Source: Escherichia coli | GTDB lineage: Bacteria > Pseudomonadota > Gammaproteobacteria > Enterobacterales > Enterobacteriaceae | Reading direction: 5' to 3' (one strand) | Assembly: GCF_013315695.1 (NCBI RefSeq) | Contig: NZ_CP054353.1 | DNA length: 64,000 bases | Part shown: one piece after another, positions 40,260-57,451 of the stretch | Numbering within the stretch: position 1 is the stretch's first letter | How the letters are laid out: every line of letters starts with the position of its first letter | Translations under genes and position numbers: made by a program | Notes under the pieces: generated by a model | What the model was told of the DNA's origin: nothing | Seen by the model: only the letters and a program-made list of their open reading frames with translations | The model's database searches: none

Positions 40260-40646
40260 TTGTGGAGAAAGTTGATGCGTGATATTCAAATGGTTCTTGA
40301 ACGTTGGGGGGCATGGGTGGCAAATAATCACGAGGATGTGGAATGGTCATCTGTTGCTGCAGGTTTTAAGGGATTAATTCCTTCGAAAGTAAAATCCCGC
40401 CCGCAATGTAGCGATGACGATGGCCTGATCATTAGCTCTGCGATGACAGTTCTTAAGAAAAAGGAACCGTATCAATACGAATTACTGGAAATGTATTATG
40501 TGTATGGGGTTACATTACGGGTGTTGGGGGTAAAACTGGGGATATCACTTAATCAGGTTGTTATCAGACTGCAGAAAGCTGAAGGGTTTATTGACGGTTG
40601 TCTGGCAATGTTGGGGGTATCTTTAGAAATTGATTGTTACATATAG
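40260..40646 (+). CDS. late-gene antiterminator Q
   Basis: 128-aa ORF resembling the short Q proteins of E. coli cryptic prophages (QuuD-like); true start may be MRDIQMVLERW at 40275; sits directly upstream of the late region. Confidence 0.7.
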   Translation: MWRKLMRDIQMVLERWGAWVANNHEDVEWSSVAAGFKGLIPSKVKSRPQCSDDDGLIISSAMTVLKKKEPYQYELLEMYYVYGVTLRVLGVKLGISLNQVVIRLQKAEGFIDGCLAMLGVSLEIDCYI

Positions 40647-40685: not shown

Positions 40686-40718
40686 AACCTCCTGATGATA
40701 CCTGTTCATTGGGAGGTT
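40686..40718 (+). promoter_or_regulatory. RBS-sequestering hairpin upstream of the 214-aa cargo gene
   Basis: aacctcc(40686-40692) pairs with ggaggtt(40712-40718), which contains the GGAGG RBS for the ATG at 40722. Confidence 0.45.
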
Positions 40719-41339
40719 ATTATGGATAAAAATGTAGAGCATGTATTAGTTGATGCAATTGAAAATAAGCAATCTTTAACAGTCGTTTACTTAGGAGGGA
40801 GCCAGCCCGGAACATTAAGGAATATTTCTCCGATTAGTATAAATGGGGATAAATTGCGGGCAAGATGCCATAGTTCTGGAGCAGTAAAGGTTTTCAATCT
40901 TGGGAAAATACAGTTACCCAGTGACTCCTGCGCGGTATCTATGCACTATGGAGATTTAGAAGTTAAAGCTTATGAGACGATGCAGAGCGTAAATGACAAC
41001 TTTCATGCCCTTTATCCTGAAGGACGATGGGGTGTTGATTTTAATGAGCATCGCTTTGCTTTATTTGATTTTTTTAAAAACGGGAAACGAAAAAAAACGG
41101 CATTTATGGCAATTGAGTTCAGGGAAAGAGATGAAGAGAAAATAATAACAGGTGTAACAATTGATATTGGTATATCTGGAACAGTGATTTCTGAGAAGTC
41201 CCGAATCCCAAAAAGACGACCATGGGTAGTGGTTGGTCCCGAACACGGAGAATACAGTACTTATTCAACTTTGGACAAGGCTGCTACAGCGTTTTTTGAG
41301 AGGCTTTCGTTGATAGCATCCGGCCTGGAAGATAATTGA
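40695..41339 (+). CDS. hypothetical cargo protein downstream of Q, family not recognised
   Basis: 214-aa ORF, AT-rich; probable start MDKNVEH at 40722 preceded by a GGAGG RBS; segment YLGGSQPGTLRNISPISINGDKLRARC...FNLGKI could be a small beta-barrel ligand-binding domain. Confidence 0.5.
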   Translation: MIPVHWEVIMDKNVEHVLVDAIENKQSLTVVYLGGSQPGTLRNISPISINGDKLRARCHSSGAVKVFNLGKIQLPSDSCAVSMHYGDLEVKAYETMQSVNDNFHALYPEGRWGVDFNEHRFALFDFFKNGKRKKTAFMAIEFRERDEEKIITGVTIDIGISGTVISEKSRIPKRRPWVVVGPEHGEYSTYSTLDKAATAFFERLSLIASGLEDN

Positions 41340-41468
41340 TTTTATGTTTGGTATTCAGAGTTCGCCGTGCTTAAGAAAGTCAAGATTCTAAAAATACTGA
41401 ATGAGCTACTTGTGTTATAACAAAAATGCTATTAGTGTGTTAAGAGTGGTTACTTCGCCACACAACTT

Positions 41469-41494
41469 AAACCCGCCACTGAGCGGGTTTTTTG
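41469..41494 (+). terminator. rho-independent terminator
   Basis: acccgc-cactga-gcgggt stem-loop followed by TTTTTT. Confidence 0.75.
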
Positions 41495-41617
41495 TACCTG
41501 TAAACTTGGTGCAGTACAGTAAACACGCTGGTGGTCGTGAATACTGGCTTTTTATCTTGCTGGCTTTTTAGACAAGAGTTATTGGTATGTCACGTTAACC
41601 GGAAAGGGTAAAAAGAC

Positions 41618-41815
41618 ATGCTGAAACAGCAGGATATGACAGAAACCGCCAGAGTTGTGTTTGATGAATTAAGCGTTACCGAACCGGCGACAGTCGGGGA
41701 GATTGCGCAGAATACTTACCTTTCACGCGAACGCTGCCAGTTAATACTGACCCAGCTTGTTATGGCGGGTCTGGCAGACTATCAGTGCGGTTGTTACAGA
41801 CGCCTTCAGTCCTGA
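41618..41815 (+). CDS. small winged-HTH-like regulator
   Basis: 65-aa ORF; PATVGEIAQNTYLSRERCQLILTQLVMAGL resembles a PapI/FaeA-like winged helix. Confidence 0.4.
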   Translation: MLKQQDMTETARVVFDELSVTEPATVGEIAQNTYLSRERCQLILTQLVMAGLADYQCGCYRRLQS

Positions 41816-41949
41816 AGGCTTTTTATTTGTGGTGAATGGGCGGCTGGTGGGGGGGCGACACCTGTCAGTCCTTTGCTTATGTGTTGATGATAATTTACCT
41901 TTTGGGGCTATAATTGAGCTAACCAATTGCTAATGAAAGTAAAATTATA

Positions 41950-42663
41950 ATGGCTGTTGTCTGTTCAGTTATCATGGTTTGCTCCCCAATTAATATTTTT
42001 CTTGAAAAGGATACGTTGTCACTTAAGCCAGGCTCAGTTGTTCTGGCCACCAAATGCATCAGGGAGCTTTTCCTTATGCATTATGGCAAAGTTAAAATTG
42101 TCGATATAAGCGAATCCGTCGTAAGTCAATATCTGGAAAGTCAGCATAAGCTGACGAGGACTCGTCTGACTGACATTCCGCTTTACCTGTTGCTGGAACC
42201 CAACAATCCTGCGTTGGCTGCGGCTTTAATTACCAGCCAGGGATTTTCCGGAGAGGCCACGGATATGTTTCTTATGATGGCCTGCCTGTCTCTGTTTGAA
42301 ACAGATGAACGGATGTCATTGTTTTTAAGTGGATGTTTATCCAGCATAAGTGCCAAAGTCAGGGCGATAATTCAGACAGATATATCAGCAAGCTGGACGC
42401 TTGGTGCGATTGCTCTACAGTTGCATATGAGTGAGAGTTTGTTAAAGACAAAACTGAAAAATGAAGGGGGCATGTTCAGTCGCTTGTTGCTGGAAGAGCG
42501 GATGCGTGTTGCTGTAAATATGTTATGTTCCCGGCATGGATATGGACAGGCTATAGCAGAAAAATGCGGTTATTCAAGCAGGTCCTACTTTATTTCTGTA
42601 TTTCACCGCTATTATGGCTTCCCGCCAGACAGATATGTATCCAGGCAAGGGCTTGATTATTGA
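41950..42663 (+). CDS. AraC-family transcriptional regulator
   Basis: 237-aa ORF with C-terminal AraC-type dual HTH (WTLGAIALQLHMSESLLKTKLK ... IAEKCGYSSRSYFISVFHRYYGFPP); AT-rich. Confidence 0.7.
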   Translation: MAVVCSVIMVCSPINIFLEKDTLSLKPGSVVLATKCIRELFLMHYGKVKIVDISESVVSQYLESQHKLTRTRLTDIPLYLLLEPNNPALAAALITSQGFSGEATDMFLMMACLSLFETDERMSLFLSGCLSSISAKVRAIIQTDISASWTLGAIALQLHMSESLLKTKLKNEGGMFSRLLLEERMRVAVNMLCSRHGYGQAIAEKCGYSSRSYFISVFHRYYGFPPDRYVSRQGLDY

Positions 42664-42691: not shown

Positions 42692-42767
42692 GGCCCTTTA
42701 GCTCAGTGGTGAGAGCGAGCGATTCATAATCGCCAGGTCGCTGGTTCAAATCCAGCAAGGGCCACCA
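42692..42767 (+). tRNA. tRNA with CAU anticodon (Ile2/Met-type; ileZ-like)
   Basis: Cloverleaf GGCCCTT-TA-GCTCAGTGGTGAGAGC..anticodon loop TTCATAA..GGTTCAAATCC..AAGGGCC-A-CCA. Confidence 0.85.
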
Positions 42768-42774
42768 TCACATA

Positions 42775-42851
42775 CCGCCATTAGCTCATCAGGATAGAGC
42801 GCCAGCCTTCGAAGCTGGTTGCGCGGGGTTCGAGTCCTCGATGGCGGTCCA
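42775..42851 (+). tRNA. tRNA-Arg (anticodon UCG; argN-like)
   Basis: Acceptor CCGCCAT/ATGGCGG, anticodon loop CTTCGAA, T-loop GGTTCGAGTCC, encoded CCA. Confidence 0.8.
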
Positions 42852-42864
42852 TTATCTGTACCCT

Positions 42865-42941
42865 GCGTTATTAGCTCAGCCGGACAGAGCAATTGCCTTC
42901 TAAGCAATCGGTCACTGGTTCGAATCCAGTACAACGCGCCA
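42865..42941 (+). tRNA. tRNA-Arg (anticodon UCU; argO/argU-like)
   Basis: GCGTTATTAGCTCAGCCGGACAGAGC..anticodon loop CTTCTAA..GGTTCGAATCC..CGCCA, close to host argU. Confidence 0.8.
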
Positions 42942-42954
42942 GACTTATTTTTCC

Positions 42955-42980
42955 CGGCTCGCTTTTGCGGGCTTTTTTTT
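42955..42980 (+). terminator. rho-independent terminator after the tRNA cluster
   Basis: gctcgc-tttt-gcgggc hairpin followed by eight T. Confidence 0.7.
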
Positions 42981-43433
42981 AAATGTCTCACAATTCAGAC
43001 GGTTGACAGTTGTCTGTTTTGCGGGGAGTTTGTTAAAAGAAACTGGCATGGTGAATCCCCCTGTGCGGAGGGGCAATCAGCAACTGGTGTTTTGTCACCG
43101 ACCCTTATCCTTTCTGTGCGGGTTCAGGTGCTGATACTGAACTCACCGGGAGGCACCCGGCATCATGTGCATGATGATACAGATACGCGGCTTTAGCCCC
43201 TCTCCGGAGGGGCTTTCTTGTGGGCAAAAAAAAGCCCGAGTGGGTTCGGGCAACAGCATGAGATATACATTTTTATAATCGAATGGATTTTAACCAGAAT
43301 TCATAAGGCTGCGCAACTGCGCGGTCTTTTTCGAATTGCGGGCTGTCGTCTCTCTTCTGCCATTGTCCTGTAACTTCCGGACTTCAGCCCGCTCCTTATT
43401 TTACTCACAATATTATCCCGGCCGGGAGGATTC

Positions 43434-45395
43434 ATGGCATTTAAACACTATGACGTGGTCAGGGCGGCATCGCCGTCAGACCTTGCGAAACGACTGACAC
43501 AAAAACTGAAGGAGGGGTGGCAGCCATTTGGCAGTCCGGTGGCCATCACGCCTTATACCCTGATGCAGGCCATTGCGGCGGAAGGTGATGTCACCACACC
43601 TGTGGTGGTGAAGCCGTCGGATGGAGAAGGCGCAGTTATCAGCAACACCAGCAACCCGGAGTATTACTTTGTTGTTGCCCTGGCCGGGCAGTCAAACGGT
43701 ATGGCGTATGGTGAAGGGCTTCCGCTGCCGGAGACATATGACCGTCCGGACCCGCGTATTAAACAGCTGGCGCGTCGCAGCACTGTCACGCCGGGTGGTG
43801 CGTCCTGTAACTACAATGACATTATTCCTGCGGACCACTGCCTGCATGATGTTCAGGATTTGAGTAAGTTTTCACACCCGAAAGCCAGCGCAGCTCAGTA
43901 TGGATGCGTGGGGCAGGGATTACATATCGCGAAGAAATTGTTGCCGTTTATTCCGGCGAATGCCGGTATTCTTCTGGTTCCGTGCTGCCGTGGTGGTTCT
44001 GCATTTTTGGCGGGCGATGAAGGTACCTTCAGCGAATCCACCGGCGCAAGCGAGACCTCGGCACGCTGGGGTGTAGATAAGCCACTGTACAAGGACCTGC
44101 TTACCCGTACTCAGGCCGCACTGAAGGCCAACCCTAAAAATATTCTGCTTGCAGTGGTCTGGATGCAGGGCGAGTTTGATTTGAAACAGGGTGCATACGC
44201 CACTCAGCCGGGGCTGTTTGATTCCATGGTGGAAAAATATCGTTCTGACCTGTCGGAATTCGGAGGTCAGTGTCTCGGGGGCTCTCCGTCATCAGTTCCC
44301 TGGATTTGTGGCGACACGACCTACTACTGGAAGCAGACTTATTCTTCGCAATACGATGCGGTGTATGGTGCATATAAGACGAAATCCGCAAAAAAAATCT
44401 TCTTTGTGCCGTTTATGACGGATGAAAACGGGCGAAATGTGGGTACCAACGAGCCGTCAGAAGATCCGGATGTTGCGGATATTGGGTATTACGGAGCCGG
44501 TGGTCGAACGGACGCCAAAACCTGGACGACGGCTGACCGTAAAACGCATTTTGGATCATGGGCACGTCGTGGGATTATTTCCGACCGTCTGGCAACGGCG
44601 ATTCTTGTGCATGCCGGGAGAACCGCTGAATTCATTACCGGAAAACAGCCTGATACGGTGAAGCCCACCGGACCTTCCGGTGAAGGTACGGAGAGAGAGC
44701 CGGAAGGTCCGGTCAGTAACCGAACCCTGATGAGTCTGCTGGCGTCCGGCGAAGACCTGGCATCACAGGGCTGGCGCTATTATCACAAACCGGCGAGCGG
44801 AGACAATGTTAACAAAAACATTGCTGAAGCGGTGGTCAGTGATGCGGGGGCTACGGGAGGTAAGGCCCTGCAACTGAATAAACCGGAAAACCACATCTGG
44901 TTTCTGGAGCATGATGCAGCCGGGCAGGGGGCAGAGTTGCTGAAGAAAGGAGGACGTGTGAGCGTACGGTTTAAGTTGCCGGGTTCACTGGTGCCGAATC
45001 AGTTTGCCCTGGGCATTTACTGGCAGTTGTCGTCCCTGCCGGAGGGAGTGACGCTGGCAGAGGAAGGCAACGACATGCTGATGTCCTTCTTTCTGCAGAC
45101 GGATGCGACGAACCTGAACGCGATGCACCACAAGAAGCCGAATGCGAAGCTGGAAACGTTCGGGGTCTTTGATAACGGATGGCACACACTGGCTTTTGAG
45201 TTTGCCGGAAACAACAGCATTCAGGTGACGCCGGTACTGGATGAGAAACGGGGGACGCCGTTCACACTGGTGAAATCTCCGGCATCAGGGGCGGCGGACA
45301 AACTGCAACTGACAGGCATATCAAAGGCGGCGACATATACGCTGCTGATTGACAGTGTGAAGGTGGAAGTGAACAACGCGGATGCCGCGGCATGA
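43434..45395 (+). CDS. nanS-p: prophage sialate O-acetylesterase (NanS-p-like)
   Basis: 653-aa ORF; position and sequence recalled as the esterase found downstream of stx in Stx phages. Confidence 0.65.
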   Translation: MAFKHYDVVRAASPSDLAKRLTQKLKEGWQPFGSPVAITPYTLMQAIAAEGDVTTPVVVKPSDGEGAVISNTSNPEYYFVVALAGQSNGMAYGEGLPLPETYDRPDPRIKQLARRSTVTPGGASCNYNDIIPADHCLHDVQDLSKFSHPKASAAQYGCVGQGLHIAKKLLPFIPANAGILLVPCCRGGSAFLAGDEGTFSESTGASETSARWGVDKPLYKDLLTRTQAALKANPKNILLAVVWMQGEFDLKQGAYATQPGLFDSMVEKYRSDLSEFGGQCLGGSPSSVPWICGDTTYYWKQTYSSQYDAVYGAYKTKSAKKIFFVPFMTDENGRNVGTNEPSEDPDVADIGYYGAGGRTDAKTWTTADRKTHFGSWARRGIISDRLATAILVHAGRTAEFITGKQPDTVKPTGPSGEGTEREPEGPVSNRTLMSLLASGEDLASQGWRYYHKPASGDNVNKNIAEAVVSDAGATGGKALQLNKPENHIWFLEHDAAGQGAELLKKGGRVSVRFKLPGSLVPNQFALGIYWQLSSLPEGVTLAEEGNDMLMSFFLQTDATNLNAMHHKKPNAKLETFGVFDNGWHTLAFEFAGNNSIQVTPVLDEKRGTPFTLVKSPASGAADKLQLTGISKAATYTLLIDSVKVEVNNADAAA

Positions 45396-45546: not shown

Positions 45547-45729
45547 ATGACATTTCTGAACCAGTTAATGCTGTACTTCTGTACGGCAGTCTGTGTTATG
45601 TATCTTCTTTCGGGTGGGTACAGGGCAGTGCGCGATTTCTGGCGCAGGCAGATTGATAAAAGGGCCGCTGAGAGAATCAGCGCCAGTCAGTCAGCCGGAA
45701 GCAAACCCGAAGATCCGCTCATTCCGTAG
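45547..45729 (+). CDS. small hydrophobic protein
   Basis: 60-aa ORF with one predicted TM segment, upstream of the lysis cassette. Confidence 0.35.
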   Translation: MTFLNQLMLYFCTAVCVMYLLSGGYRAVRDFWRRQIDKRAAERISASQSAGSKPEDPLIP

Positions 45730-45766: not shown

Positions 45767-46036
45767 ATGTCAGAAATCACATCCCTGGTCACTGCTGAGG
45801 CAGTGAAGGAAGTCCTGCGCTCTGAAGAAGTCCTGAGCGCACTGAAACAGAAACTCCGCCAGAACCTTGAGGCGCGTCTTGATGCAGAAGTGGATGCCAT
45901 TCTGGATGAGCTGCTGGGCGTACCAGCGGTTCCGGAGCCGGAAGGCATTGCGGATGACAGTACTGTTTCAGATGGCGTCGGGTCTCAGCCTGACGGTAGT
46001 GAAGAGCCTCAGCCTGACGGCGAAATGATGATGTAA
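45767..46036 (+). CDS. acidic hypothetical protein
   Basis: Internal start MSEITSLVTAE of ORF 45593..46036; highly acidic C-terminus. Confidence 0.4.
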   Translation: MSEITSLVTAEAVKEVLRSEEVLSALKQKLRQNLEARLDAEVDAILDELLGVPAVPEPEGIADDSTVSDGVGSQPDGSEEPQPDGEMMM

Positions 46037-46111
46037 CCATGCGCAGGGGGTGTCGGTGTGAGCTGATGCCCCACTTGTTGTTGTGAGCTTCCGGATTGCG
46101 GGAGACGGGGT

Positions 46112-46327
46112 ATGTACCAGATGGAAAAAATCACAACAGGTGTGTCATACACCACGTCAGCGGTGGGAACGGGCTACTGGTTCCTGCAGTTGCTGGACAG
46201 GGTTTCCCCGTCTCAGTGGGCGGCAATAGGCGTGCTGGGGAGTCTGCTGTTTGGGCTGCTGACATATCTGACTAACCTGTATTTCAAAATCAGAGAGGAC
46301 CGGCGTAAGGCGGCGCGGGGAGAGTAA
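46112..46327 (+). CDS. holin (phage-21 S-type pinholin)
   Basis: 71-aa [46 protein letters not shown]..., two TM segments, charged C-terminus; recalled as S21 family. Confidence 0.85.
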
Positions 46328-46328
46328 A

Positions 46329-46682
46329 GTGATGAATAAAAAATATGAACTGGTTGTTAAGGGGATAAATAATTACGGGGATAAGGTTACTGTTACTGTG
46401 AAGCCGGAAGGTGACGGGCAAGCGTCGCTGTTGTTGCCAGATGTGGCGATTAGTCTTGACCGTACTGAAGGTGCCACGCTGGAGTTTTACGAAGCTGAGG
46501 CGAAAAAGCAGGCGAAGCAGTTTTTCATGGATGTTGCTGCCGGGTTATGTGAAGGGGATGGTCCGTTGCCGGAAAAGCGCCCCGTAATTTTAGAGGCGCA
46601 GGATGTGTTGATAACCTACAAAGGAAAGCTACCGGGAAGAATTACTGGTTCTCTGAAGACTCCACCGGAATCACAACCTTAA
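46329..46682 (+). CDS. hypothetical protein inserted between holin and endolysin
   Basis: 117-aa hydrophilic ORF starting 1 bp after the holin stop. Confidence 0.5.
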   Translation: MMNKKYELVVKGINNYGDKVTVTVKPEGDGQASLLLPDVAISLDRTEGATLEFYEAEAKKQAKQFFMDVAAGLCEGDGPLPEKRPVILEAQDVLITYKGKLPGRITGSLKTPPESQP

Positions 46683-46745: not shown

Positions 46746-47279
46746 ATGAACGCAAAAATCAGATACGGCCTGTCGGCTGCCGTTCTGGCGCTGATTGCCG
46801 CAGGTGCGCCTGCGCCTGACATTCTCGACCAGTTTCTGGATGAAAAGGAAGGTAACCACACCACGGCATACCGTGATGGTGCGGGTATCTGGACTATCTG
46901 CCGCGGTGCCATCCTGGTGGATGGCAAACCTGTCGTTCCGGGCATGAAGTTGTCGAAGGAAAAATGCGACCAGGTTAACGCCATTGAGCGTGATAAAGCG
47001 CTGGCGTGGGTGGAGAAAAACATCAGAGTGCCGCTGACCGAACCCCAGAAAGCGGGGATCGCGTCATTCTGTCCGTACAACATTGGTCCCGGTAAGTGTT
47101 TCCCGTCGACGTTTTATAAACGAATTAATGCAGGTGATCGCAGGGGAGCGTGTGAGGCGATTCGCTGGTGGATTAAGGACGGTGGCAGAGACTGCCGTAT
47201 CCGCTCAAACAACTGTTATGGTCAGGTATCCCGTCGTGACCAGGAGAGCGCGCTGGCGTGCTGGGGAATCGACAGATAA
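46746..47279 (+). CDS. SAR endolysin (lysozyme, GH24; phage-21 R-type)
   Basis: N-terminal signal-anchor-release segment (LSAAVLALIAAGAPA) and E-D-T catalytic triad spacing (EGNHTTAYRDGAGIWTICRG). Confidence 0.85.
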   Translation: MNAKIRYGLSAAVLALIAAGAPAPDILDQFLDEKEGNHTTAYRDGAGIWTICRGAILVDGKPVVPGMKLSKEKCDQVNAIERDKALAWVEKNIRVPLTEPQKAGIASFCPYNIGPGKCFPSTFYKRINAGDRRGACEAIRWWIKDGGRDCRIRSNNCYGQVSRRDQESALACWGIDR

Positions 47280-47577: not shown

Positions 47578-48015
47578 ATGAACCGCGTACTGTGCGTGGT
47601 CATCATTGCCCTGCTGGTGGCCTGTGGTGCGCTTAGTCTGGGGCTGAATCATTACCGTGATAACGCCATGACCTACAAAGAGCAGCGCGATAAAGCCACA
47701 TCCATCATCGCTGATATGCAGAAGCGTCAACGTGATGTAGCAGAACTCGACGCCAGATACACAAAGGAGCTTGCTGATGCTAACGCGACTATCGAAAGTC
47801 TCCGTGCTGATGTTTCTGCTGGTCGTAAGCGCCTGCAAGTCGCCGCCACCTGTGCAAAGTCAACGACCGGAGCCAGCAGCATGGGCGATGGAGAAAGCCC
47901 AAGACTTACAGCAGATGCTGAACTCAATTATTACCGTCTCCGAAGTGGAATCGACAAGATAACCGCGCAGGTTAACTACCTGCAGGAATACATCAGGACG
48001 CAATGCCTGAAATAA
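47578..48015 (+). CDS. i-spanin Rz
   Basis: 145-aa ORF with N-terminal TM and coiled-coil periplasmic domain; Rz1 embedded. Confidence 0.8.
   Translation: MNRVLCVVIIALLVACGALSLGLNHYRDNAMTYKEQRDKATSIIADMQKRQRDVAELDARYTKELADANATIESLRADVSAGRKRLQVAATCAKSTTGASSMGDGESPRLTADAELNYYRLRSGIDKITAQVNYLQEYIRTQCLK
47771..47962 (+). CDS. o-spanin Rz1 (lipoprotein) embedded in Rz in the +1 frame
   Basis: Lipobox LVVSAC followed by a proline-rich segment; fully inside Rz. Confidence 0.7.
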   Translation: MLMLTRLSKVSVLMFLLVVSACKSPPPVQSQRPEPAAWAMEKAQDLQQMLNSIITVSEVESTR

Positions 48016-50308: not shown

Positions 50309-50818
50309 GTGGCTACGCAGACTGAAGTTGCCAGGCATTTAAGTCTGACCGATCGCCAGCTTCGCAGATTGCAGAAATTGCCGGGTGCCCCGATATCGAA
50401 TAAGCGAGGGCAACTGGATCTGGATGCCTGGCGCGATTTTTACATATCGTATCTGAGAAGAAGTAAAAACGATGTGCCTGATGGCGATAGCGAAGACGAC
50501 TATGAGGAGAAATTGCTTATTGCCAGATGGGAACTGACAGCAGAACAGGCTGTTACACAGCAGTTAAAAAATGAGGTGTCAAAAGGAAAACTTATTGACA
50601 CCGGGTTCTGTATTTTTGCCCTCAGCAAGCTGGCAATGGCGTTATCCAGTACGCTTGATTCCATCCCTTTATCCATGCAGCGACAGTTTCCTGATTTAAC
50701 ACCGCGCCATCTTGACCATCTGAAAACCCTTATTGCGAAGGGGGCAAATCAGTGTGCGCGGGCGGGGGATAAATTACCGGATTTACTCGATGAATATATC
50801 AGAGCAACAACTGAATAA
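50309..50818 (+). CDS. terminase small subunit (Nu1-like)
   Basis: 169-aa ORF (GTG start); C-terminal similarity to lambda Nu1. Confidence 0.8.
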   Translation: MATQTEVARHLSLTDRQLRRLQKLPGAPISNKRGQLDLDAWRDFYISYLRRSKNDVPDGDSEDDYEEKLLIARWELTAEQAVTQQLKNEVSKGKLIDTGFCIFALSKLAMALSSTLDSIPLSMQRQFPDLTPRHLDHLKTLIAKGANQCARAGDKLPDLLDEYIRATTE

Positions 50819-52707
50819 TATGATGAGTGCTGTCACAACAGCATTACAGCCCCTGATAAGGGCATTGCCGGTGACGCCAGTTGAATGGGCTGATCAAAAT
50901 TATTATCTGCCTAAAGAATCTTCATATGGTGAGGGAGAATGGAAAACGCTGCCGTTCCAGATCGCCATCATGAACAGCATGGGGAATGATCAGATCCGGA
51001 CTGTTAATCTGATTAAATCTGCCCGTGTTGGCTATACAAAGATGTTGCTGGGGGTGGTCGGGTATTTTATTGAGCATAAATCCCGAAACAGTCTGCTTTT
51101 TCAGCCCACGGATTCTGCCGCTGAAGATTTTATGAAGTCTCACGTGGAGGCGACGATTCGGGATGTGCCATGTCTGAAAGACCTTTCTCCATGGCTGGGG
51201 CGTAAACATCGTGACAATACTCTCACGCTGAAACGCTTTTCATCGGGTGTGGGCTTCTGGTGCCTGGGCGGCGCTGCCGCCAAAAACTACCGTGAAAAAT
51301 CCGTGGACGTGGTCTGCTATGACGAACTTTCCTCGTTCGAACCGGATGTCGAAAAAGAGGGTTCGCCAACCCTGCTTGGGGATAAACGTATTGAGGGCTC
51401 TGTATGGCCCAAATCCATTCGCGGCTCGACGCCTAAAATCAAAGGCACCTGCCAGATCGAAAAAGCGGCCAACGAGTCGGCGCATTTCATGCGTTTTTAT
51501 GTGCCCTGCCCGCACTGTGGGGAGGCGCAGTATCTGAAATTTGGCGATGAGTCCACGCCTTTTGGCCTTAAATGGGAGAAGGACAGCCCCGAAAGCGTTT
51601 TCTACCTCTGTGAACATCATGGCTGCGTGATCCATCAGTCTGAGCTTGACCAGAGCAACGGGCGGTGGATCTGTGAAAACACGGGGATGTGGACCCGCGA
51701 CGGTCTGACGTTTTTCAGCGCTGCGGATAATGAAATTCCGCCGCCGCGCTCCATCACATTCCATATCTGGACGGCGTACAGTCCGTTCACCACCTGGGTA
51801 CAGATTGTCTATGACTGGCTGGATGCACTGAAAGATCCCAACGGCCTGAAAACCTTTGTGAACACCACGCTGGGCGAGACCTGGGAAGAGGCCGTGGGCG
51901 AAAAACTCGATCACCAGGTGCTGATGGATAAGGTTGTGCGTTACACGGCTGCGGTGCCTTCCCGGGTGGTTTATCTGACGGCGGGCATTGACTCGCAGCG
52001 AAACCGTTTTGAGATGTATGTCTGGGGATGGGCTCCGGGAGAGGAAGCCTTTCTGGTGGATAAAATCATCATTATGGGGCGTCCCGATGAGGAAGAGACG
52101 CTGTTACGTGTGGATGTGGCGATCAACAAAAAATACCGCCATGCAGACGGAACCGAAATGACCATTTCCCGTGTCTGCTGGGACACCGGGGGGAATTGTC
52201 TATCAGAGGTCAAAAAAACACGGTGTTTTCCGGGTGCTGCCGGTAAAAGGTGCATCTGTTTATGGCAAGCCGGTGATCACCATGCCAAAAACCCGCAATC
52301 AGCGGGGCGTGTATCTGTGCGAAGTGGGGACGGACACCGCAAAAGAAATTCTCTATGCCCGTATGAAAGCCGATCCCACGCCTGCGGATGAAGCCACGTC
52401 GTATGCCATCCGTTTTCCTGATGATCCGGAGATTTTTTCGCAGACAGAGGCGCAGCAACTGGTGGCGGAAGAGCTTGTGGAGAAGTGGGAAAAAGGAAAG
52501 ATGCGTCTGCTGTGGGATAACAAAAAGCGGCGTAACGAAGCGCTGGACTGCCTGGTGTATGCCTACGCGGCATTACGTGTGTCCGTGCAACGCTGGCAGC
52601 TTGATCTGGCTGTACTGGCAAAATCCCGGGAAGAAGAGACGACCCGGCCAACCCTTAAAGAACTGGCAGCGAAGCTGTCCGGAGGAGTGAATGGTTACAG
52701 TCGCTGA
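50790..52707 (+). pseudogene. terminase large subunit (lambda A-like) with a frameshift at 52188-52193
   Basis: N-terminal frame (MNISEQQLNN...RVCWDTGG) and C-terminal frame (GIVYQRSKKHGVFRVLPVKGASVYGKPV...) both match lambda gpA as recalled, but are offset by one base at a run of six G. Confidence 0.8.
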
Positions 52708-52897
52708 ACTGCAGGCGCTGCGTCAGGCGCGCCTTGATTTATTAACCGGTAAACGGGTGGTGTCTGTCCAGAAAGATGGTCGCAGAATTGAATATACGGC
52801 AGCTTCTCTGGATGAGCTTAACCGGGCGATCAATGATGCGGAGTCGGTACTGGGGACAACCCGCCGTCGCCGTCGTCCGCTGGGAGTGAGGTTATGA
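52691..52897 (+). CDS. head-tail joining protein W
   Basis: 68-aa ORF ...LTGKRVVSVQKDGRRIEYTAASL... close to lambda gpW. Confidence 0.85.
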   Translation: MVTVAELQALRQARLDLLTGKRVVSVQKDGRRIEYTAASLDELNRAINDAESVLGTTRRRRRPLGVRL

Positions 52898-54486
52898 AAC
52901 GAACGCCTGTCCTGATTGATGTGAACGGCGTTCCGCTTCGGGAGAGCCTCAGCTACAACGGTGGCGGTGCAGGATTTGGCGGGCAAATGGCAGAGTGGTT
53001 GCCACCCTCGCAGAGTGCCGATGCGGCCCTGCTGCCCGCGTTGCGTCTGGGGAATGCCCGTGCAGATGATCTGGTGCGCAATAACGGAATAGCGGCCAAT
53101 GCGGTGGCCCTGCATAAGGATCACATTGTCGGGCATATGTTTCTGATCAGTTACCGTCCGAACTGGCGCTGGCTGGGGATGCGGGAGACCGCGGCAAAAA
53201 GTTTTGTCGATGAGGTGGAGGCGGCCTGGTCAGAATACGCAGAAGGGATGTTTGGTGAGATCGACATGGAAGGGAAACGCACGTTCACGGAATTTATCCG
53301 TGAAGGTGTGGGCGTTCATGCGTTTAACGGCGAAATCTTTGTGCAGCCGGTCTGGGATACGGAGAGCACGCAACTGTTTCGTACGCGTTTTAAAGCCGTG
53401 AGTCCGAAACGGGTGGACACGCCAGGACACGGTATGGGGAACCGTTTTCTGCGGGCCGGTGTGGAGGTCGATCGATATGGTCGTGCCGTTGCGTACCATA
53501 TCTGTGAGGATGATTTTCCTCGCTCCGGGAGTGGACGATGGGAACGGATCCCGCGTGAACTTCCCACCGGGCGTCCGGCCATGCTGCATATTTTCGAGCC
53601 GGTGGAGGACGGGCAGACCCGTGGGGCCAATCAGTTTTACAGCGTAATGGAACGGCTGAAGATGCTCGATTCCCTGCAGGCAACACAGCTTCAGTCGGCC
53701 ATAGTGAAGGCGATGTATGCAGCGACGATTGAAAGTGAACTTGATACCGAAAAGGCCTTTGAATATATCGCCGGTGCGCCGCAGGGGCAGAAGGATAATC
53801 CGCTTATTAATATTCTGGAGAAGTTCTCCACCTGGTATGACACGAATAGCGTGACGCTGGGCGGTGTCAAAATTCCGCACCTTTTCCCCGGTGATGATCT
53901 GAAACTTCAGACCGCGCAGGATTCAGACAATGGATTTTCGGCGCTTGAACAGGCGCTGCTGCGGTATATCGCCGCCGGTCTTGGCGTTTCCTACGAACAG
54001 TTGTCCCGTGATTACTCGAAGGTCAGTTATTCAAGTGCCCGCGCATCCGCCAATGAGTCGTGGCGCTATTTTATGGGGCGGCGAAAATTTATTGCGTCCC
54101 GGCTGGCCACGCAGATGTTTTCCTGCTGGCTGGAAGAGGCACTTCTTCGGGGGATTATTCGTCCGCCACGGGCGCGTTTTGATTTTTATCAGGCGCGATC
54201 AGCCTGGTCACGGGCTGAGTGGATTGGAGCCGGAAGAATGGCCATTGACGGGCTCAAGGAGGTTCAGGAATCAGTGATGCGCATTGAGGCCGGACTGAGC
54301 ACGTATGAGAAAGAGCTGGCGCTGATGGGCGAGGATTATCAGGACATTTTCCGCCAGCAGGTCAGGGAATCTGCAGAGCGGGAAAAAGCCGGACTCTCAC
54401 GTCCGGTGTGGATAGCGCAGGCGTATCAGCAGCAGATAGCGGAGAGTCGCAGGCCGGAAGAGGAGACAACACCACGTGAGACGTAA
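52894..54486 (+). CDS. portal protein (lambda B-like)
   Basis: 530-aa ORF with long near-identical stretches to lambda gpB (VEDGQTRGAN.FYSVME..KMLD.LQ.TQLQSAIVKAMYAATIESELDT). Confidence 0.9.
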   Translation: MKRTPVLIDVNGVPLRESLSYNGGGAGFGGQMAEWLPPSQSADAALLPALRLGNARADDLVRNNGIAANAVALHKDHIVGHMFLISYRPNWRWLGMRETAAKSFVDEVEAAWSEYAEGMFGEIDMEGKRTFTEFIREGVGVHAFNGEIFVQPVWDTESTQLFRTRFKAVSPKRVDTPGHGMGNRFLRAGVEVDRYGRAVAYHICEDDFPRSGSGRWERIPRELPTGRPAMLHIFEPVEDGQTRGANQFYSVMERLKMLDSLQATQLQSAIVKAMYAATIESELDTEKAFEYIAGAPQGQKDNPLINILEKFSTWYDTNSVTLGGVKIPHLFPGDDLKLQTAQDSDNGFSALEQALLRYIAAGLGVSYEQLSRDYSKVSYSSARASANESWRYFMGRRKFIASRLATQMFSCWLEEALLRGIIRPPRARFDFYQARSAWSRAEWIGAGRMAIDGLKEVQESVMRIEAGLSTYEKELALMGEDYQDIFRQQVRESAEREKAGLSRPVWIAQAYQQQIAESRRPEEETTPRET

Positions 54487-55981
54487 TCTTTCACACATTA
54501 TTGCCGCAGCATTCAATGAACCGCTGCTTCTGGAGCCCGCCTATGCGCGGGTTTTCTTTTGCGCGCTCGGGCGCGAGATGGGGGCAGCAAGTCTTTCGGT
54601 ACCGCAACAGCAGGTACAGCTTGATGCTCCCGGGATGCTGGCTGAAACGGACGAGTACATGGCCGGAGGTAAACGACCGGCCCGTGTTTACCGGGTGGTG
54701 AACGGTATTGCGGTACTGCCGGTGACCGGCACGCTGGTGCACCGGCTGGGGGGGATGCGGCCATTTTCCGGAATGACTGGCTATGACGGCATTGTCGCCT
54801 GTCTTCAGCAGGCAATGGCAGATAGCCAGGTGCGGGGCATACTGCTGGACATTGACAGTCCGGGCGGGCAGGCCGCCGGCGCGTTTGACTGCGCTGACAT
54901 GATTTACCGCCTCCGGCAGCAGAAGCCGGTCTGGGCACTGTGTAATGACACGGCCTGTTCTGCAGCCATGCTGCTGGCGTCGGCCTGCTCCCGACGGCTG
55001 GTTACCCAGACATCCCGTATCGGCTCCATTGGCGTGATGATGAGCCATGTCAGCTATGCCGGTCATCTGGCGCAGGCCGGTGTGGATATCACGCTGATTT
55101 ACTCAGGAGCGCACAAGGTGGATGGCAATCAGTTTGAAGCGTTGCCGGCAGAGGTTCGCCAGGACATGCAGCAGCGGATTGATGCGGCGCGCCGGATGTT
55201 TGCCGAAAAAGTGGCGATGTATACCGGTCTGTCTGTTGATGCGGTCACGGGAACAGAGGCTGCCGTTTTTGAAGGTCAGTCCGGCATTGAGGCCGGGCTG
55301 GCGGATGAATTAATCAATGCGTCGGATGCCATCAGTGTGATGGCCACGGCGCTGAACAGTAATGTCAGAGGAGGCACTATGCCGCAATTAACTGCAACGG
55401 AAGCCGCCGTGCAGGAGAACCAGCGAGTGATGGGGATCCTGACATGCCAGGAAGCGAAAGGACGTGAACAGCTTGCCACGATGCTGGCAGGGCAACAGGG
55501 CATGAGCGTTGAACAGGCCCGGGCGATTCTGGCCGCGGCGGCACCGCAGCAGCCGGTGGCATCCGCACAGAGTGAAGCCGATCGCATTATGGCGTGTGAA
55601 GAAGCGAACGGTCGTGAACAACTGGCGGCAACGCTGGCGGCGATGCCGGAGATGACGGTGGAAAAAGCCCGCCCGATCCTGGCTGCTTCACCGCAGGCGA
55701 ATGCCGGACCATCACTCCGTGATCAGATCATGGCACTGGATGAGGCAAAAGGGGCTGAGGCGCAGGCTGAACAGCTGGCTGCCTGCCCGGGAATGACTGT
55801 GGAGAGCGCCCGGGCTGTGCTGGCTGCGGGATCAGGTAAGGCAGAACCGGTCTCTGCATCCACAACCGCCCTGTTTGAACATTTCATGGCGAACCATTCA
55901 CCGGCTGCGGTCCAGGGGGGCGTGTCACAGGCGTCAGAAGACGGTGATGCGGACGTGAAAATGCTCATGGCCATGCCATGA
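54476..55981 (+). CDS. head protease/scaffold (lambda C/Nu3-like, S49 peptidase family)
   Basis: 501-aa ORF; C-terminal half carries three tandem ~35-aa repeats. Confidence 0.8.
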   Translation: MRRNLSHIIAAAFNEPLLLEPAYARVFFCALGREMGAASLSVPQQQVQLDAPGMLAETDEYMAGGKRPARVYRVVNGIAVLPVTGTLVHRLGGMRPFSGMTGYDGIVACLQQAMADSQVRGILLDIDSPGGQAAGAFDCADMIYRLRQQKPVWALCNDTACSAAMLLASACSRRLVTQTSRIGSIGVMMSHVSYAGHLAQAGVDITLIYSGAHKVDGNQFEALPAEVRQDMQQRIDAARRMFAEKVAMYTGLSVDAVTGTEAAVFEGQSGIEAGLADELINASDAISVMATALNSNVRGGTMPQLTATEAAVQENQRVMGILTCQEAKGREQLATMLAGQQGMSVEQARAILAAAAPQQPVASAQSEADRIMACEEANGREQLAATLAAMPEMTVEKARPILAASPQANAGPSLRDQIMALDEAKGAEAQAEQLAACPGMTVESARAVLAAGSGKAEPVSASTTALFEHFMANHSPAAVQGGVSQASEDGDADVKMLMAMP

Positions 55982-56017
55982 AGTCAGTGCTGAACATCAA
56001 TACGAGGTTTTTACAAT

Positions 56018-56368
56018 ATGGTGACGAAAACCATCACTGAACAGCGTGCGGAAGTACGTATTTTTGCCGGTAATGATCCGGCTCACACCGCCACAGGCAG
56101 CAGCGGGATTTCCTCGGCAACACCGGCACTGACACCCCTGATGCTGGATGGGGCCACCGGGAAACTGGTGGTCTGGGACGGACAGAAAGCCGGTAGTGCG
56201 GTTGGCATACTGGTACTGCCGCTTGAAGGCACAGAGGAGGTGCTGACCTATTACAAGTCGGGGACCTTTGCGACGGAGGCAATCCGCTGGCCTGAAAGTG
56301 TGGATGAACACAAAAAGGCCAACGCCTTTACCGGCAGTGCCCTGAGTCACGCGGCGCTGCCGTAACAC
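56018..56368 (+). CDS. head decoration protein D
   Basis: 115-aa ORF ...DPAHTAT...TPLMLD...YYKSGTF... lambda gpD-like. Confidence 0.85.
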
Positions 56369-56422
56369 GTTATCAGGCCACCGCGTTGGCCTGACTGATT
56401 TCTTAATGAAAGGAACTGATTT

Positions 56423-57451
56423 ATGGGATTGTTTACGACCCGCCAGTTACTCGGTTATACCGAACAAAAAGTTAAATTCCGTGCGCTGTTTCTGGAGCTG
56501 TTTTTCCGCCGTACGGTGAATTTCCACACCGAAGAGGTGATGCTGGACAAAATTACCGGAAAAACGCCGGTGGCGGCCTATGTCTCCCCGATCGTTGAAG
56601 GAAAAGTGCTTCGCCATCGCGGTGGTGAAACCCGCGTGTTACGTCCGGGCTACGTCAAGCCCAAACACGAATTTAATTACCAGCAGGCGGTTGAGCGCCT
56701 TCCTGGTGAAGATCCGGCTCAGCTGAACGACCCGGCCTACCGTCGTCTGCGTATCATTACCGATAACCTCAAACAGGAAGAGCACGCCATTGTCCAGGTG
56801 GAAGAAATGCAGGCGGTGAATGCCGTGCTGTATGGCAAATACACCATGGAAGGGGATCAGTTTGATACTGTCGAGGTGGATTTCGGGCGCTCTGAAGGAA
56901 ATAACATTGAGCAGGCTGACGGTAAAAAATGGTCTGAGCAGGACCGTGATACGTTTGATCCGACGCATGATATTGACCTCTACTGCGATCAGGCCAGCGG
57001 CCTTGTGAATATCGCCATTATGGACGGTACGGTCTGGCGTCTGCTGAATGGCTTTAAGCTGTTCCGCGAAAAACTGGATACCCGTCGCGGCTCAAATTCA
57101 CAACTCGAAACGGCAGTGAAAGATCTGGGGGCGGTGGTGTCCTTCAAGGGGTATTACGGCGATCTGGCCATTGTGGTGGCGAAAACGTCTTATGTGGCAG
57201 AGGACGGTACCGAAAAACGTTATCTGCCGGAGGGCATGCTGGTGCTGGGGAATACGGCAGCAGAGGGCATTCGTTGCTATGGTGCCATTCAGGATGCGCA
57301 GGCGTTGTCCGAAGGTGTGGTGGCCTCTTCCCGTTACCCGAAACACTGGCTGACCGTGGGCGATCCGGCCCGTGAATTCACCATGACGCAGTCCGCACCG
57401 CTGATGGTGCTGCCGGATCCGGATGAGTTTGTGGTGGTACAGGTGAAATAA
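56423..57451 (+). CDS. major capsid protein E
   Basis: 342-aa ORF with extended identity to lambda gpE (GYVKPKHE ... TRRGSNS.LETAVKDLG ... GDPAREFTM.QSAPLM). Confidence 0.9.
   Translation: MGLFTTRQLLGYTEQKVKFRALFLELFFRRTVNFHTEEVMLDKITGKTPVAAYVSPIVEGKVLRHRGGETRVLRPGYVKPKHEFNYQQAVERLPGEDPAQLNDPAYRRLRIITDNLKQEEHAIVQVEEMQAVNAVLYGKYTMEGDQFDTVEVDFGRSEGNNIEQADGKKWSEQDRDTFDPTHDIDLYCDQASGLVNIAIMDGTVWRLLNGFKLFREKLDTRRGSNSQLETAVKDLGAVVSFKGYYGDLAIVVAKTSYVAEDGTEKRYLPEGMLVLGNTAAEGIRCYGAIQDAQALSEGVVASSRYPKHWLTVGDPAREFTMTQSAPLMVLPDPDEFVVVQVK

Follow-up and report, generated by a model that had tools for sequence, protein, structure and literature searches.

The closest described systems are the NanS-p esterases of EHEC (933W z1466/L0105, phi24B vb_24B_21, which is gp84, and the EDL933 and O104:H4 alleles). 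They consist of three domains and occupy a slot in the late region that extends from Q and the tRNAs (and stx) to the holin. EHEC NanS-p alleles enable growth of the host on Neu5,9Ac2 (PMC8065619), and homologues are induced along with stx and the late genes, with mitomycin C or norfloxacin causing co-induction with stx2 (PMC10462455; PMC8065619). Chromosomal NanS (YjhS, PDB 3PT5) has a homologous core with a Ser-His dyad and the blocks GQSN, RGGSAF, MQGEFD and RxSH, but its 326 aa comprise this core only, with neither a DUF1737 nor a lectin-like domain, and its gene lies in the nanCMS operon and not in a prophage. NanS uses Ser19/His301, and a main-chain oxygen stands in for the Asp (PMC10792757, from which the definitions of the blocks and the dyad were taken).

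One member of the family has been described as a capsid-decorating protein. Purified phi24B virions carry gp84, which is anchored by DUF1737; a DUF1737 hexamer occupies the central hexon, Tyr42 serves as the anchor "tooth", and the authors ascribe binding to flat hexons in the middle of the capsid faces of this T=9 podovirus head (bioRxiv 10.64898/2026.04.10.717836). Capsid binding by a DUF1737 esterase has thus been shown for a single phage, in a preprint. The same work compares gp84 with T4 Hoc. The shared idea is a capsid-surface module that engages mucus glycans; however, Hoc is an Ig-like monomeric binder devoid of enzyme activity, whereas at our locus DUF1737 would anchor an esterase together with a lectin-like domain, so that the likeness is one of analogy, not homology.

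The window, i.e. the whole stretch of 64,000 nucleotides of E. coli DNA analysed here, contains a lambdoid prophage that carries a gene of this family. Taken as a whole, the locus is best explained as a late-operon NanS-p esterase with a DUF1737 capsid adaptor, a reading that we consider likely. The encoded protein shares with EHEC NanS-p the three domains and the SGNH block variants, its gene lies in the same late-region slot, and the gene order is that of phi24B. It is only 60% identical to the phi24B and 933W proteins over the full length, and the NanS-p proteins in 352 phage records are all 55–65% identical to it. In further contrast to the EHEC systems, stx is absent from the prophage and from the region upstream of nanS-p. 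In its lineage the host is similar to ExPEC and commensal isolates from humans, the nearest genomes being human urine, biopsy and ExPEC isolates, and the strain context is not EHEC.

Identity and catalytic residues of the esterase

The coding sequence starts with ATG, is preceded by a Shine-Dalgarno-like GGGAGG (43424-43429) and encodes 653 aa followed by a stop codon. The first-pass annotation had described a 653-aa ORF between the tRNAs and the lysis cassette that resembles NanS-p esterases, and both the position and the likeness were borne out (Table 1). Pfam matches were obtained for DUF1737 (PF08410, aa 3-50, 9e-16), SASA (PF03629, aa 83-274, 6e-9; 36.2 bits, above the gathering threshold of 24.8) and DUF6645 (PF20350, aa 503-616, 2e-43), while PHROG 143 matched across the whole length. 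Among known structures, NanS (3PT5) aligned with aa 73-391 (E=1.4e-118) and the C-terminal domain of NanS-p (6YP6) with aa 464-648 (E=5e-61). An AF2 model of the full protein, built on a 31-sequence alignment, had a mean pLDDT of 67, with low confidence for the N-domain and an all-beta C-terminal domain at about 80–90. By tblastn, an identical protein (100% over all 653 aa) is encoded in E. coli FDAARGOS_144, where RefSeq annotates it as "SASA family carbohydrate esterase" (WP_001530582.1). The family is therefore already described and the protein itself already annotated. Judged from its sequence, the ORF almost certainly encodes a NanS-p-type sialate O-acetylesterase. A chance ORF or a pseudogene was ruled out by the intact reading frame, the Pfam and structure matches and the catalytic motifs.

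The four esterase blocks are present as GQSN (aa 85-88), RGGSAF (186-191), MQGEFD (244-249) and RKTHF (369-373); the last of these reads RKTH here and RASH or RSSH in EHEC NanS-p (block V). Residues S87, G187, Q245, G246, E247, R369 and H372 are invariant across 31 diverse homologues including NanS, and GQSN together with RxxHF was found in all of the 103 unique homologues. It had been proposed to check the conservation of a catalytic triad. This check is slightly misframed, because NanS relies on a Ser/His dyad in which a main-chain oxygen takes over from the Asp, but in substance it came out in favour of the esterase: S87 and H372 are both present and the block II and III motifs are kept. 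As in E. coli NanS, Ser87 would act as the nucleophile and His372 as the base of an SGNH/SASA core. From these residues we infer an active enzyme that would de-O-acetylate sialic acids such as Neu5,9Ac2 as well as O-acetylated mucin glycans.

The C-terminal lectin-like jelly-roll probably tethers the enzyme to glycans. For vb_24B_21, the aromatic residues Y510, Y515, Y540 and F611 have been proposed to bind the sugar (PMC10462455). In an alignment read by hand, three of these four positions remain aromatic in our protein (F524, Y529, F553), and the position of F611 is deleted.

Table 1. Position of nanS-p, its domains and neighbouring features in the window.
Feature	Position	Strand	Basis
Antiterminator Q gene, start of the late region with nanS-p	40260-40646	+	ORF; annotation of near-identical locus L001
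tRNA-Met (CAT; Met/Ile2-type)	42692-42767	+	ARAGORN; Rfam tRNA
tRNA-Arg (TCG)	42775-42851	+	ARAGORN; Rfam tRNA
tRNA-Arg (TCT)	42865-42941	+	ARAGORN; Rfam tRNA
STnc100/PasD-family sRNA-like element, spacer between tRNAs and nanS-p	43017-43225	+	Rfam RF02076, 131.7 bits (gathering 47)
AsxR-like antisense sRNA element	43229-43281	-	Rfam RF02703, 63 bits (exactly the gathering score)
nanS-p CDS	43434-45395	+	ORF list; Pfam, PHROG and PDB matches; 60% identity to phi24B vb_24B_21/gp84
N-terminal DUF1737 domain, aa 1-55	43434-43598	+	Pfam PF08410
SASA/SGNH esterase core, aa 73-391	43650-44606	+	3PT5 alignment; 55% identity to K-12 NanS
Ser87 codon (predicted catalytic dyad)	43692-43694		
His372 codon (predicted catalytic dyad)	44547-44549		
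C-terminal lectin-like jelly-roll domain (DUF6645), aa 464-653	44823-45392	+	Pfam PF20350; 6YP6
DUF1378 small ORF, between nanS-p and holin	45547-45729	+	Pfam; L001 annotation
DUF826 small ORF, between nanS-p and holin	45767-46036	+	Pfam; L001 annotation
Class II holin	46112-46327	+	ORF; L001 annotation
DUF1327/YdfR	46329-46682	+	ORF; L001 annotation; Pfam DUF1327
Lysozyme	46746-47279	+	ORF; L001 annotation
Rz with embedded Rz1	47578-48015	+	ORF; L001 annotation
Lambda-type head module	50309-57451	+	Pfam
gpD-like decoration protein	56018-56365	+	Pfam
gpE-like major capsid protein	56423-57451	+	Pfam

Position of nanS-p in the late region

The late genes of the prophage are arranged in the order Q, tRNAs, nanS-p, DUF1378, DUF826, S, R, Rz. 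The G+C content of nanS-p (53–54%) equals that of the lysis and head genes, while the block from Q to the tRNAs upstream has 42–46%; by its base composition the gene thus does not stand out from the neighbouring lysis and head genes, as a moron would. Consensus scans, which are weak evidence, placed terminator-like hairpins upstream at 42956-42973 and 43195-43214 and the next convincing one downstream at 46047-46072, and detected no promoter-like site on the + strand from 43214 to 43434. The STnc100/PasD-like element finishes at the hairpin at 43195-43214; synteny of PasD/STnc100 with the esterase has been described (bioRxiv 10.64898/2026.05.13.724894).

The 653-aa protein has no signal-peptide extension at its N-terminus, as is the case for K-12 NanS. 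A signal peptide on the chromosomal NanS was considered and ruled out, since the K-12 sequence begins directly at the catalytic core.

This gene context suggests that nanS-p is an ordinary gene of the Q-dependent late operon, situated just downstream of the position where Stx phages carry stx. From such membership we infer the timing of expression: NanS-p would therefore be expected to appear chiefly once the prophage is induced, with phage lysis as its sole way out of the cell. That nanS-p is a late gene whose product is released by lysis appears highly likely to us. The first-pass annotation had described the gene as a moron for host fitness and not as a phage function. As stated, this finds no support in the late-gene composition, the lack of a promoter-like site of its own in the interval scanned, the induction of homologues with the late genes and the missing signal-peptide extension, nor in the presence of phi24B gp84 on virions and the co-variation of DUF1737 with the head module described below. 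To see in nanS-p nothing but an add-on for the benefit of the host is probably an oversimplification; the growth benefit to the host may be a by-product of the phage function, or an addition to it, and not an alternative. Released NanS-p could also allow neighbouring lysogens to use the de-acetylated sialic acid.

The DUF1737 domain and the head module

By comparison with phi24B gp84, the DUF1737 domain is most likely a capsid-binding adaptor, and if so NanS-p would be a mucin-modifying enzyme displayed on the virion. Residues 1-34 are nearly identical to those of gp84. The variable "anchor loop" at about aa 31-49 is of type A (GSPVAITPYTLMQAIAAEG) in our protein and not of the phi24B type: the Tyr42 loop is replaced by a version that is 3 aa shorter, PVAITPYTLMQ, but keeps a Tyr (Y41) as a possible equivalent of Tyr42. 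The SSP motifs that have been proposed to mediate autoprocessing of gp84 are absent, according to an alignment read by hand. When the 62-aa N-domain served as query in a search for homologues, the matches were all short, partial fragments at contig ends.

The partner capsid differs as well. Instead of a T=9 capsid of the gp69 type, the prophage encodes a lambda-type head with a Nu1-like TerS, GpA TerL, a lambda-family portal, an S49 protease and gpD-like and gpE-like proteins; the gpE-type capsid protein has no significant sequence similarity to gp69. The literature searched, including the report on phage phi330 (PMC12502783), yielded no virion proteomics with NanS-p on a siphovirus. By analogy with phi24B, we would give even chances to NanS-p being capsid-anchored in phages with a lambda-type head of the present kind.

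We compared N-domains and head modules among 63 related, non-identical loci and 8 complete phage genomes. Similarity of the N-domain predicted a shared head module with an AUC of 0.84, a value reached in 0 of 1000 permutations; the head was typed via the terminase gene, not the capsid protein, for most of the 63 loci, and the locus pairs behind the AUC are not phylogenetically independent. Flanking segments ranged from 0.48 to 0.71 overall (linker 1, 0.68; SASA, 0.56; linker 2, 0.60; C-terminal domain, 0.62; holin, 0.54; lysozyme, 0.59). On the separate scale of DNA k-mers, nucleotides 1-165 encoding the N-domain reached 0.80 and the 8 kb of DNA upstream 0.50–0.63. The signal was restricted to aa 13-55 and had its maximum at aa 31-49, the stretch homologous to the capsid anchor loop of phi24B. 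Linkage to the head genes can be rejected as a sufficient cause of this correlation, because the segments between the N-domain and the head genes, although nearer to the latter, show weaker association; the 300 nt directly upstream of the N-domain show none.

At least three loop types could be distinguished. Type A accompanies siphovirus heads of the lambda gpE and HK97 types, type B heads whose capsid protein is a ClpP/Mu-gpT-like fusion, and type C the phi24B-type T=9 podovirus heads. One esterase body was found with three different N-domains, each alongside its usual head type. The 8 complete phage genomes, typed at the level of the capsid protein, all agree with the pattern, and 3 of the 23 dereplicated haplotypes depart from it. 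A third scan of IMG/VR, with a type-B query and the peptide patterns of the first scan, returned mostly the same contigs.

These data allow a tentative proposal, to which we assign somewhat less than even probability: DUF1737 could be an exchangeable capsid anchor whose loop types, at least three in number, are matched to head modules. Lambda-type temperate phages of ordinary commensal and ExPEC E. coli, intact relatives of the present prophage among them, would then carry an esterase and a lectin-like domain on their heads, and the ability of lysogens to grow on Neu5,9Ac2 would merely accompany an adaptation of the phage to mucus. If DUF1737 is such a head-matched anchor, a gene that is widespread in E. 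coli prophages and counted among "virulence or fitness" genes would primarily encode a virion component. Phages would bear a mucin-modifying enzyme on the particle, the copy number of NanS-p in pathogens would need to be re-read, and DUF1737 could serve as a natural tag, swappable between constructs, for display on lambda-like heads. With the co-variation, an extension of the phi24B observation to siphoviruses becomes directly testable.

In the present prophage, the TerL gene is split by an 11-bp deletion that causes a frameshift near position 52193, as an alignment with FDAARGOS_144 revealed. Because of this frameshift, only the role as released enzyme could still operate in this copy. The deletion occurs in no complete RefSeq E. 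coli genome and is thus private to our sequence; the prophage of FDAARGOS_144 has an intact terminase gene and, like phage PhiR5_1 (PV340545), is an intact relative that combines the type A N-domain with a lambda-type head.

Alternative roles of NanS-p

The foremost alternative is pure lysogenic conversion, in which NanS-p exists so that the lysogen population can feed on the O-acetylated sialic acids of mucin, DUF1737 does nothing for the phage in this type of prophage and the correlation with the head is due to shared ancestry only. EHEC NanS-p is indeed active and required for growth on Neu5,9Ac2 (PMC8065619; PMC10462455). DNA matching nanS-p is present in 3201 of 5426 complete E. coli genomes, and its occurrence at up to 15 places per genome fits selection for dosage in the host. 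Type A N-domains, moreover, go along with two different, unrelated families of capsid proteins, and the pattern has the exceptions given above. It is also conceivable to count the intact nanS-p beside a frameshifted terminase in favour of conversion; however, the deletion says nothing about selection, because it is private to our sequence and too recent. Against conversion stand the late-gene position and composition, the missing promoter-like site, the induction of homologues with the lytic genes and the finding of gp84 on phi24B virions. The limitation of the head association to aa 13-55 also runs counter to the pattern expected from mere linkage. On balance, we regard pure conversion as unlikely, though it is the strongest competitor of the late-operon esterase with a capsid adaptor.

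A second alternative places NanS-p on or with the virion but directs it at the bacterium: the enzyme would strip O-acetyl groups from the O-antigen or capsule for adsorption, and host mucin would not be its target. K1 polysialic acid can be O-acetylated, K1 ExPEC such as S88 are among the closest strains, and virion-borne esterases that attack bacterial polysaccharides are known from other phages, all of which would fit such a role. The possibility has been raised before (PMC8065619), but the homologues studied act on free Neu5,9Ac2 as well as mucin glycans (PMC8065619), and the core shares 55% identity with NanS, whose substrate is Neu5,9Ac2. Furthermore, the phi24B protein sits on the capsid faces and not on the tail, and a Pfam search detected no tail-attachment domain in our protein. 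Receptor access thus seems quite improbable.

Finally, the gene might be an inert passenger of a defective, decaying prophage, as the frameshifted TerL and some related loci in which nanS-p is cut to 77 aa or otherwise shortened could indicate, but this is very improbable given a full-length ORF with every catalytic motif, a frameshift confined to the present sequence and a product identical (100% by tblastn) to that of a prophage with an intact terminase gene.

Esterase gene, domains and catalytic residues

The nanS-p ORF was found exactly where the first-pass annotation had put it, between the tRNAs and the lysis cassette (feature table). It is followed by DUF1378, DUF826, a class II holin, a DUF1327/YdfR ORF, lysozyme and Rz with an embedded Rz1. 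Farther downstream lies a lambda-type head/tail module encoding Nu1, GpA, a lambda-family portal, an S49 protease, a gpD-like decoration protein, a gpE-like capsid protein, a V-like tail tube and a tape measure protein. There is no stx operon between the tRNAs and the nanS-p ORF.

The identification as NanS-p is supported by Pfam matches to DUF1737 (aa 3-50, 9e-16), SASA (aa 83-274, 36 bits against a cut-off of 24.8) and DUF6645 (aa 503-616, 2e-43). In a search of solved structures, aa 73-391 matched E. coli NanS/YjhS (3PT5, E=1.4e-118) and aa 464-648 the NanS-p C-terminal domain (6YP6, E=5e-61). End-to-end alignment with vb_24B_21 (gp84), the NanS-p of phage phi24B, gave 60% identity, and the core shares 55% identity with K-12 NanS. 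Chromosomal NanS (326 aa) is the core only, whereas NanS-p carries DUF1737 in front of the same core and a lectin-like domain behind it.

NanS has the SGNH blocks GQSNA, RGGSAF, MQGEFD and R-x-S-H, with the usual Asp replaced by a main-chain oxygen (PMC10792757). Here we found GQSN (85-88), RGGSAF (186-191), MQGEFD (244-249) and RKTHF (369-373), and S87, G187, Q245, G246, E247, R369 and H372 are invariant in 31 diverse homologues including NanS, so the esterase machinery is intact. The catalytic triad had been named as the refuting check; Ser and His are indeed conserved, but the proper yardstick is a dyad of Ser and His rather than a triad. Four aromatic residues of the vb_24B_21 C-terminal domain have been proposed to bind sugar; according to a manual reading of the alignment with gp84, three of them are still aromatic here and the fourth is deleted. 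The protein lacks an N-terminal signal-peptide extension, so extracellular glycans would be reachable only through lysis.

Features around nanS-p (window coordinates)
Feature	Position	Strand	Remarks
Antiterminator Q gene	40260-40646		farther upstream than the tRNAs
AT-rich block	40695-42663		42-46% G+C; between Q and tRNAs
Three tRNA genes	42692-42941		anticodons CAT, TCG, TCT; upstream of nanS-p
CAT tRNA	42692-42767		
STnc100 Rfam match	43017-43225	+	131.7 bits, gathering score 47; ends at terminator-like hairpin
AsxR ("anti-stx2 sRNA") Rfam match	43229-43281	-	antisense; 63 bits, exactly the gathering score
GGGAGG	43424-43429		Shine-Dalgarno-like; ahead of nanS-p ATG
nanS-p ORF	43434-45395	+	ATG start, 653 aa
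Terminator-like hairpin	46047-46072		strong, 11 bp (6 GC); just upstream of holin gene
DUF1327/YdfR-family ORF	46329-46682		between holin and lysozyme
GpA terminase gene	50733-52707		11-bp deletion near 52193

Several smaller features deserve mention. The STnc100 and AsxR matches both lie in the tRNA-to-nanS-p spacer, the latter even though the prophage lacks stx. The hairpin upstream of the holin gene has no Rfam family match; the Pas sRNA preprint places PasA/PasC in this interval. An ORF of variable length at the DUF1327/YdfR position also occurs in BP-4795, Stx2-86 and PhiR5_1. ARAGORN calls the CAT tRNA Met, near-identical RefSeq copies are annotated as tRNA-Met or tRNA-Ile, and that of phi24B as Ile (AUA); it is probably of the ileX/ileZ type with a modified anticodon.

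Host-fitness gene or phage gene

In EHEC, NanS-p alleles encode active esterases that permit growth on Neu5,9Ac2, and they are among the genes most strongly induced alongside stx2 and the late genes (PMC8065619, PMC10462455). The first-pass reading of a moron rather than a phage function is not supported as worded: besides this co-induction of homologues, the G+C content of nanS-p (53-54%) equals that of the lysis and head genes, a consensus scan (weak evidence) found no + strand promoter-like site from the upstream hairpins to the start of the gene, and gp84 reportedly ranks among the most plentiful proteins in purified phi24B virions (April 2026 preprint, 10.64898/2026.04.10.717836).

The AT-rich block between Q and the tRNAs encodes a 214-aa ORF (no Pfam match), a 65-aa ORF and a 237-aa AraC-family HTH protein, and looks more like a moron/regulator cassette than nanS-p does.

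N-domain variants and head type

According to the same preprint, gp84 is found at about 70 kDa on fresh particles, with processing during storage. Its DUF1737 (residues 2-57) forms a hexamer in the central hexon of each T=9 capsid face, anchored by a loop bearing Tyr42; this binding is described for one phage in one preprint, whose authors tie it to flat hexons at capsid-face centres (10.64898/2026.04.10.717836). The window's capsid protein is of the lambda gpE type and not significantly similar to that of phi24B. Over aa 1-34, the window N-domain shows almost no difference from gp84, but it departs from it in the segment homologous to the Tyr42 loop, which is 3 aa shorter (PVAITPYTLMQ) and retains a Tyr. 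The SSP motifs proposed for gp84 autoprocessing are not conserved.

We gathered related nanS-p loci from IMG/VR and typed the downstream packaging/head module of each, in most cases by the terminase gene and not the capsid protein. Three loop types were found.

Loop types and downstream head modules
Loop type	Sequence	Head modules (loci)
A (window)	PVAITPYTLMQ	lambda-type 24; HK97-type protease-capsid fusion 9; ClpP/gpT-type 1
B	GGPFSSYTDDGAALIQ	ClpP/Mu-gpT-like fusion capsid 18; lambda-type 2
C (phi24B)	SALISTAGYGAEFIQ	phi24B-type 8; HK97-type 1

One esterase body (SASA plus C-terminal domain clusters) was seen with all three N-types, each with its usual head. All 8 complete phage genomes, typed by capsid protein, fit the pattern: type A with a gpE-type (PhiR5_1, Stx1_9793) or HK97-type capsid (BP-4795, 1717, PPyecE_EH1910), type B with a ClpP/gpT-type capsid (Stx2_12E129_yecE), and type C in phi24B and Stx2-86. 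After dereplication, 3 of 23 haplotypes break the pattern, and type A occurs with two capsid-protein families.

For 63 non-identical loci, we then measured how well the similarity of each segment predicts a shared head type (AUC), the locus pairs not being phylogenetically independent.

Prediction of shared head type by segment (the two scales differ and their values are not comparable)
Segment	AUC	Scale
N-domain (aa 1-55)	0.84	protein identity
Linker 1	0.68	protein identity
SASA core	0.56	protein identity
Linker 2	0.60	protein identity
C-terminal domain	0.62	protein identity
Holin	0.54	protein identity
Lysozyme	0.59	protein identity
N-domain DNA (nt 1-165)	0.80	DNA k-mer similarity
Upstream, -8 kb to -1	0.50-0.63	DNA k-mer similarity
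300 nt directly upstream	0.52	DNA k-mer similarity
Downstream, +1 to +3.5 kb	0.48-0.59	DNA k-mer similarity
Downstream, +3.5 to +4.5 kb, adjoining head genes	0.71	DNA k-mer similarity

Permuted head labels gave 0.50 ± 0.02 and reached 0.84 in 0 of 1000 cases. In a 12-column scan along the protein, the association peaked at aa 31-49 (AUC 0.83-0.84), where identity is 0.92 in same-head pairs and 0.36-0.50 in different-head pairs; past about aa 61 it never exceeded 0.68. Simple linkage to the head genes would not yield such an isolated N-domain island. A capsid adaptor would be expected to give an island of this kind, some 5 kb away from the head genes and with the homologue of the capsid-contact loop at its centre. 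The literature we found mentioning DUF1737 reports no link between its variants and head type.

The chances that NanS-p is anchored to capsids of the window's head type appear evenly balanced, owing to kinship among the loci, terminase-based typing, the exceptions, the two capsid families with type A, the single preprint, the lack of conserved SSP motifs and an AF2 model too weak at the N-domain loop to inform the question. In the best-supported mechanism, NanS-p would be made late and freed by lysis, with catalysis by the Ser-His SGNH core, targeting by the lectin-like domain and head anchoring by DUF1737. It would benefit the phage in mucus, and the lysogen population as a shared good. NanS-p itself is a known family; the idea of a head-matched anchor most deserves attention.

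Bodies about 92% identical to phi24B gp84 bear type A or B N-domains, not C (loci L078-L082, L089 and others, versus L002), which places an apparent recombination breakpoint at about aa 55-75, in the first linker.

Terminase deletion and distribution

Compared with the otherwise near-identical prophage of E. coli FDAARGOS_144, GpA carries an 11-bp deletion (ATCGATGGCGA) that splits it into two overlapping ORFs and divides the nuclease domain. This deletion is absent from all 5426 complete E. coli genomes. Unless it is an assembly error, the prophage is probably packaging-defective, and NanS-p could then act solely as a lysis-released enzyme. For this one strain, that comes close to the host-fitness picture, but it is silent on why the gene exists.

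Matches to the 3.5-kb locus were found in 3201 of the 5426 genomes, at up to 15 places per genome, and copies of at least 99% identity occur in 16 records. The near-identical matches listed (98% or more) come from human isolates, among them urine and biopsy strains and ExPEC such as S88. The FDAARGOS_144 protein is 100% identical (tblastn) and annotated as "SASA family carbohydrate esterase". Identity to NanS-p in 352 phage records, nearly all of them Stx phages, is just 47-65%. The gene is an allele, as yet uncharacterised, of a well-known family, and its prophage is not an Stx phage and does not come from EHEC. In some prophages, nanS-p is cut to 77 aa (DUF1737 plus a short tail), and other loci encode 124-590 aa, so pseudogenisation of the esterase part recurs (IMG/VR loci L038, L039, L076, L166).
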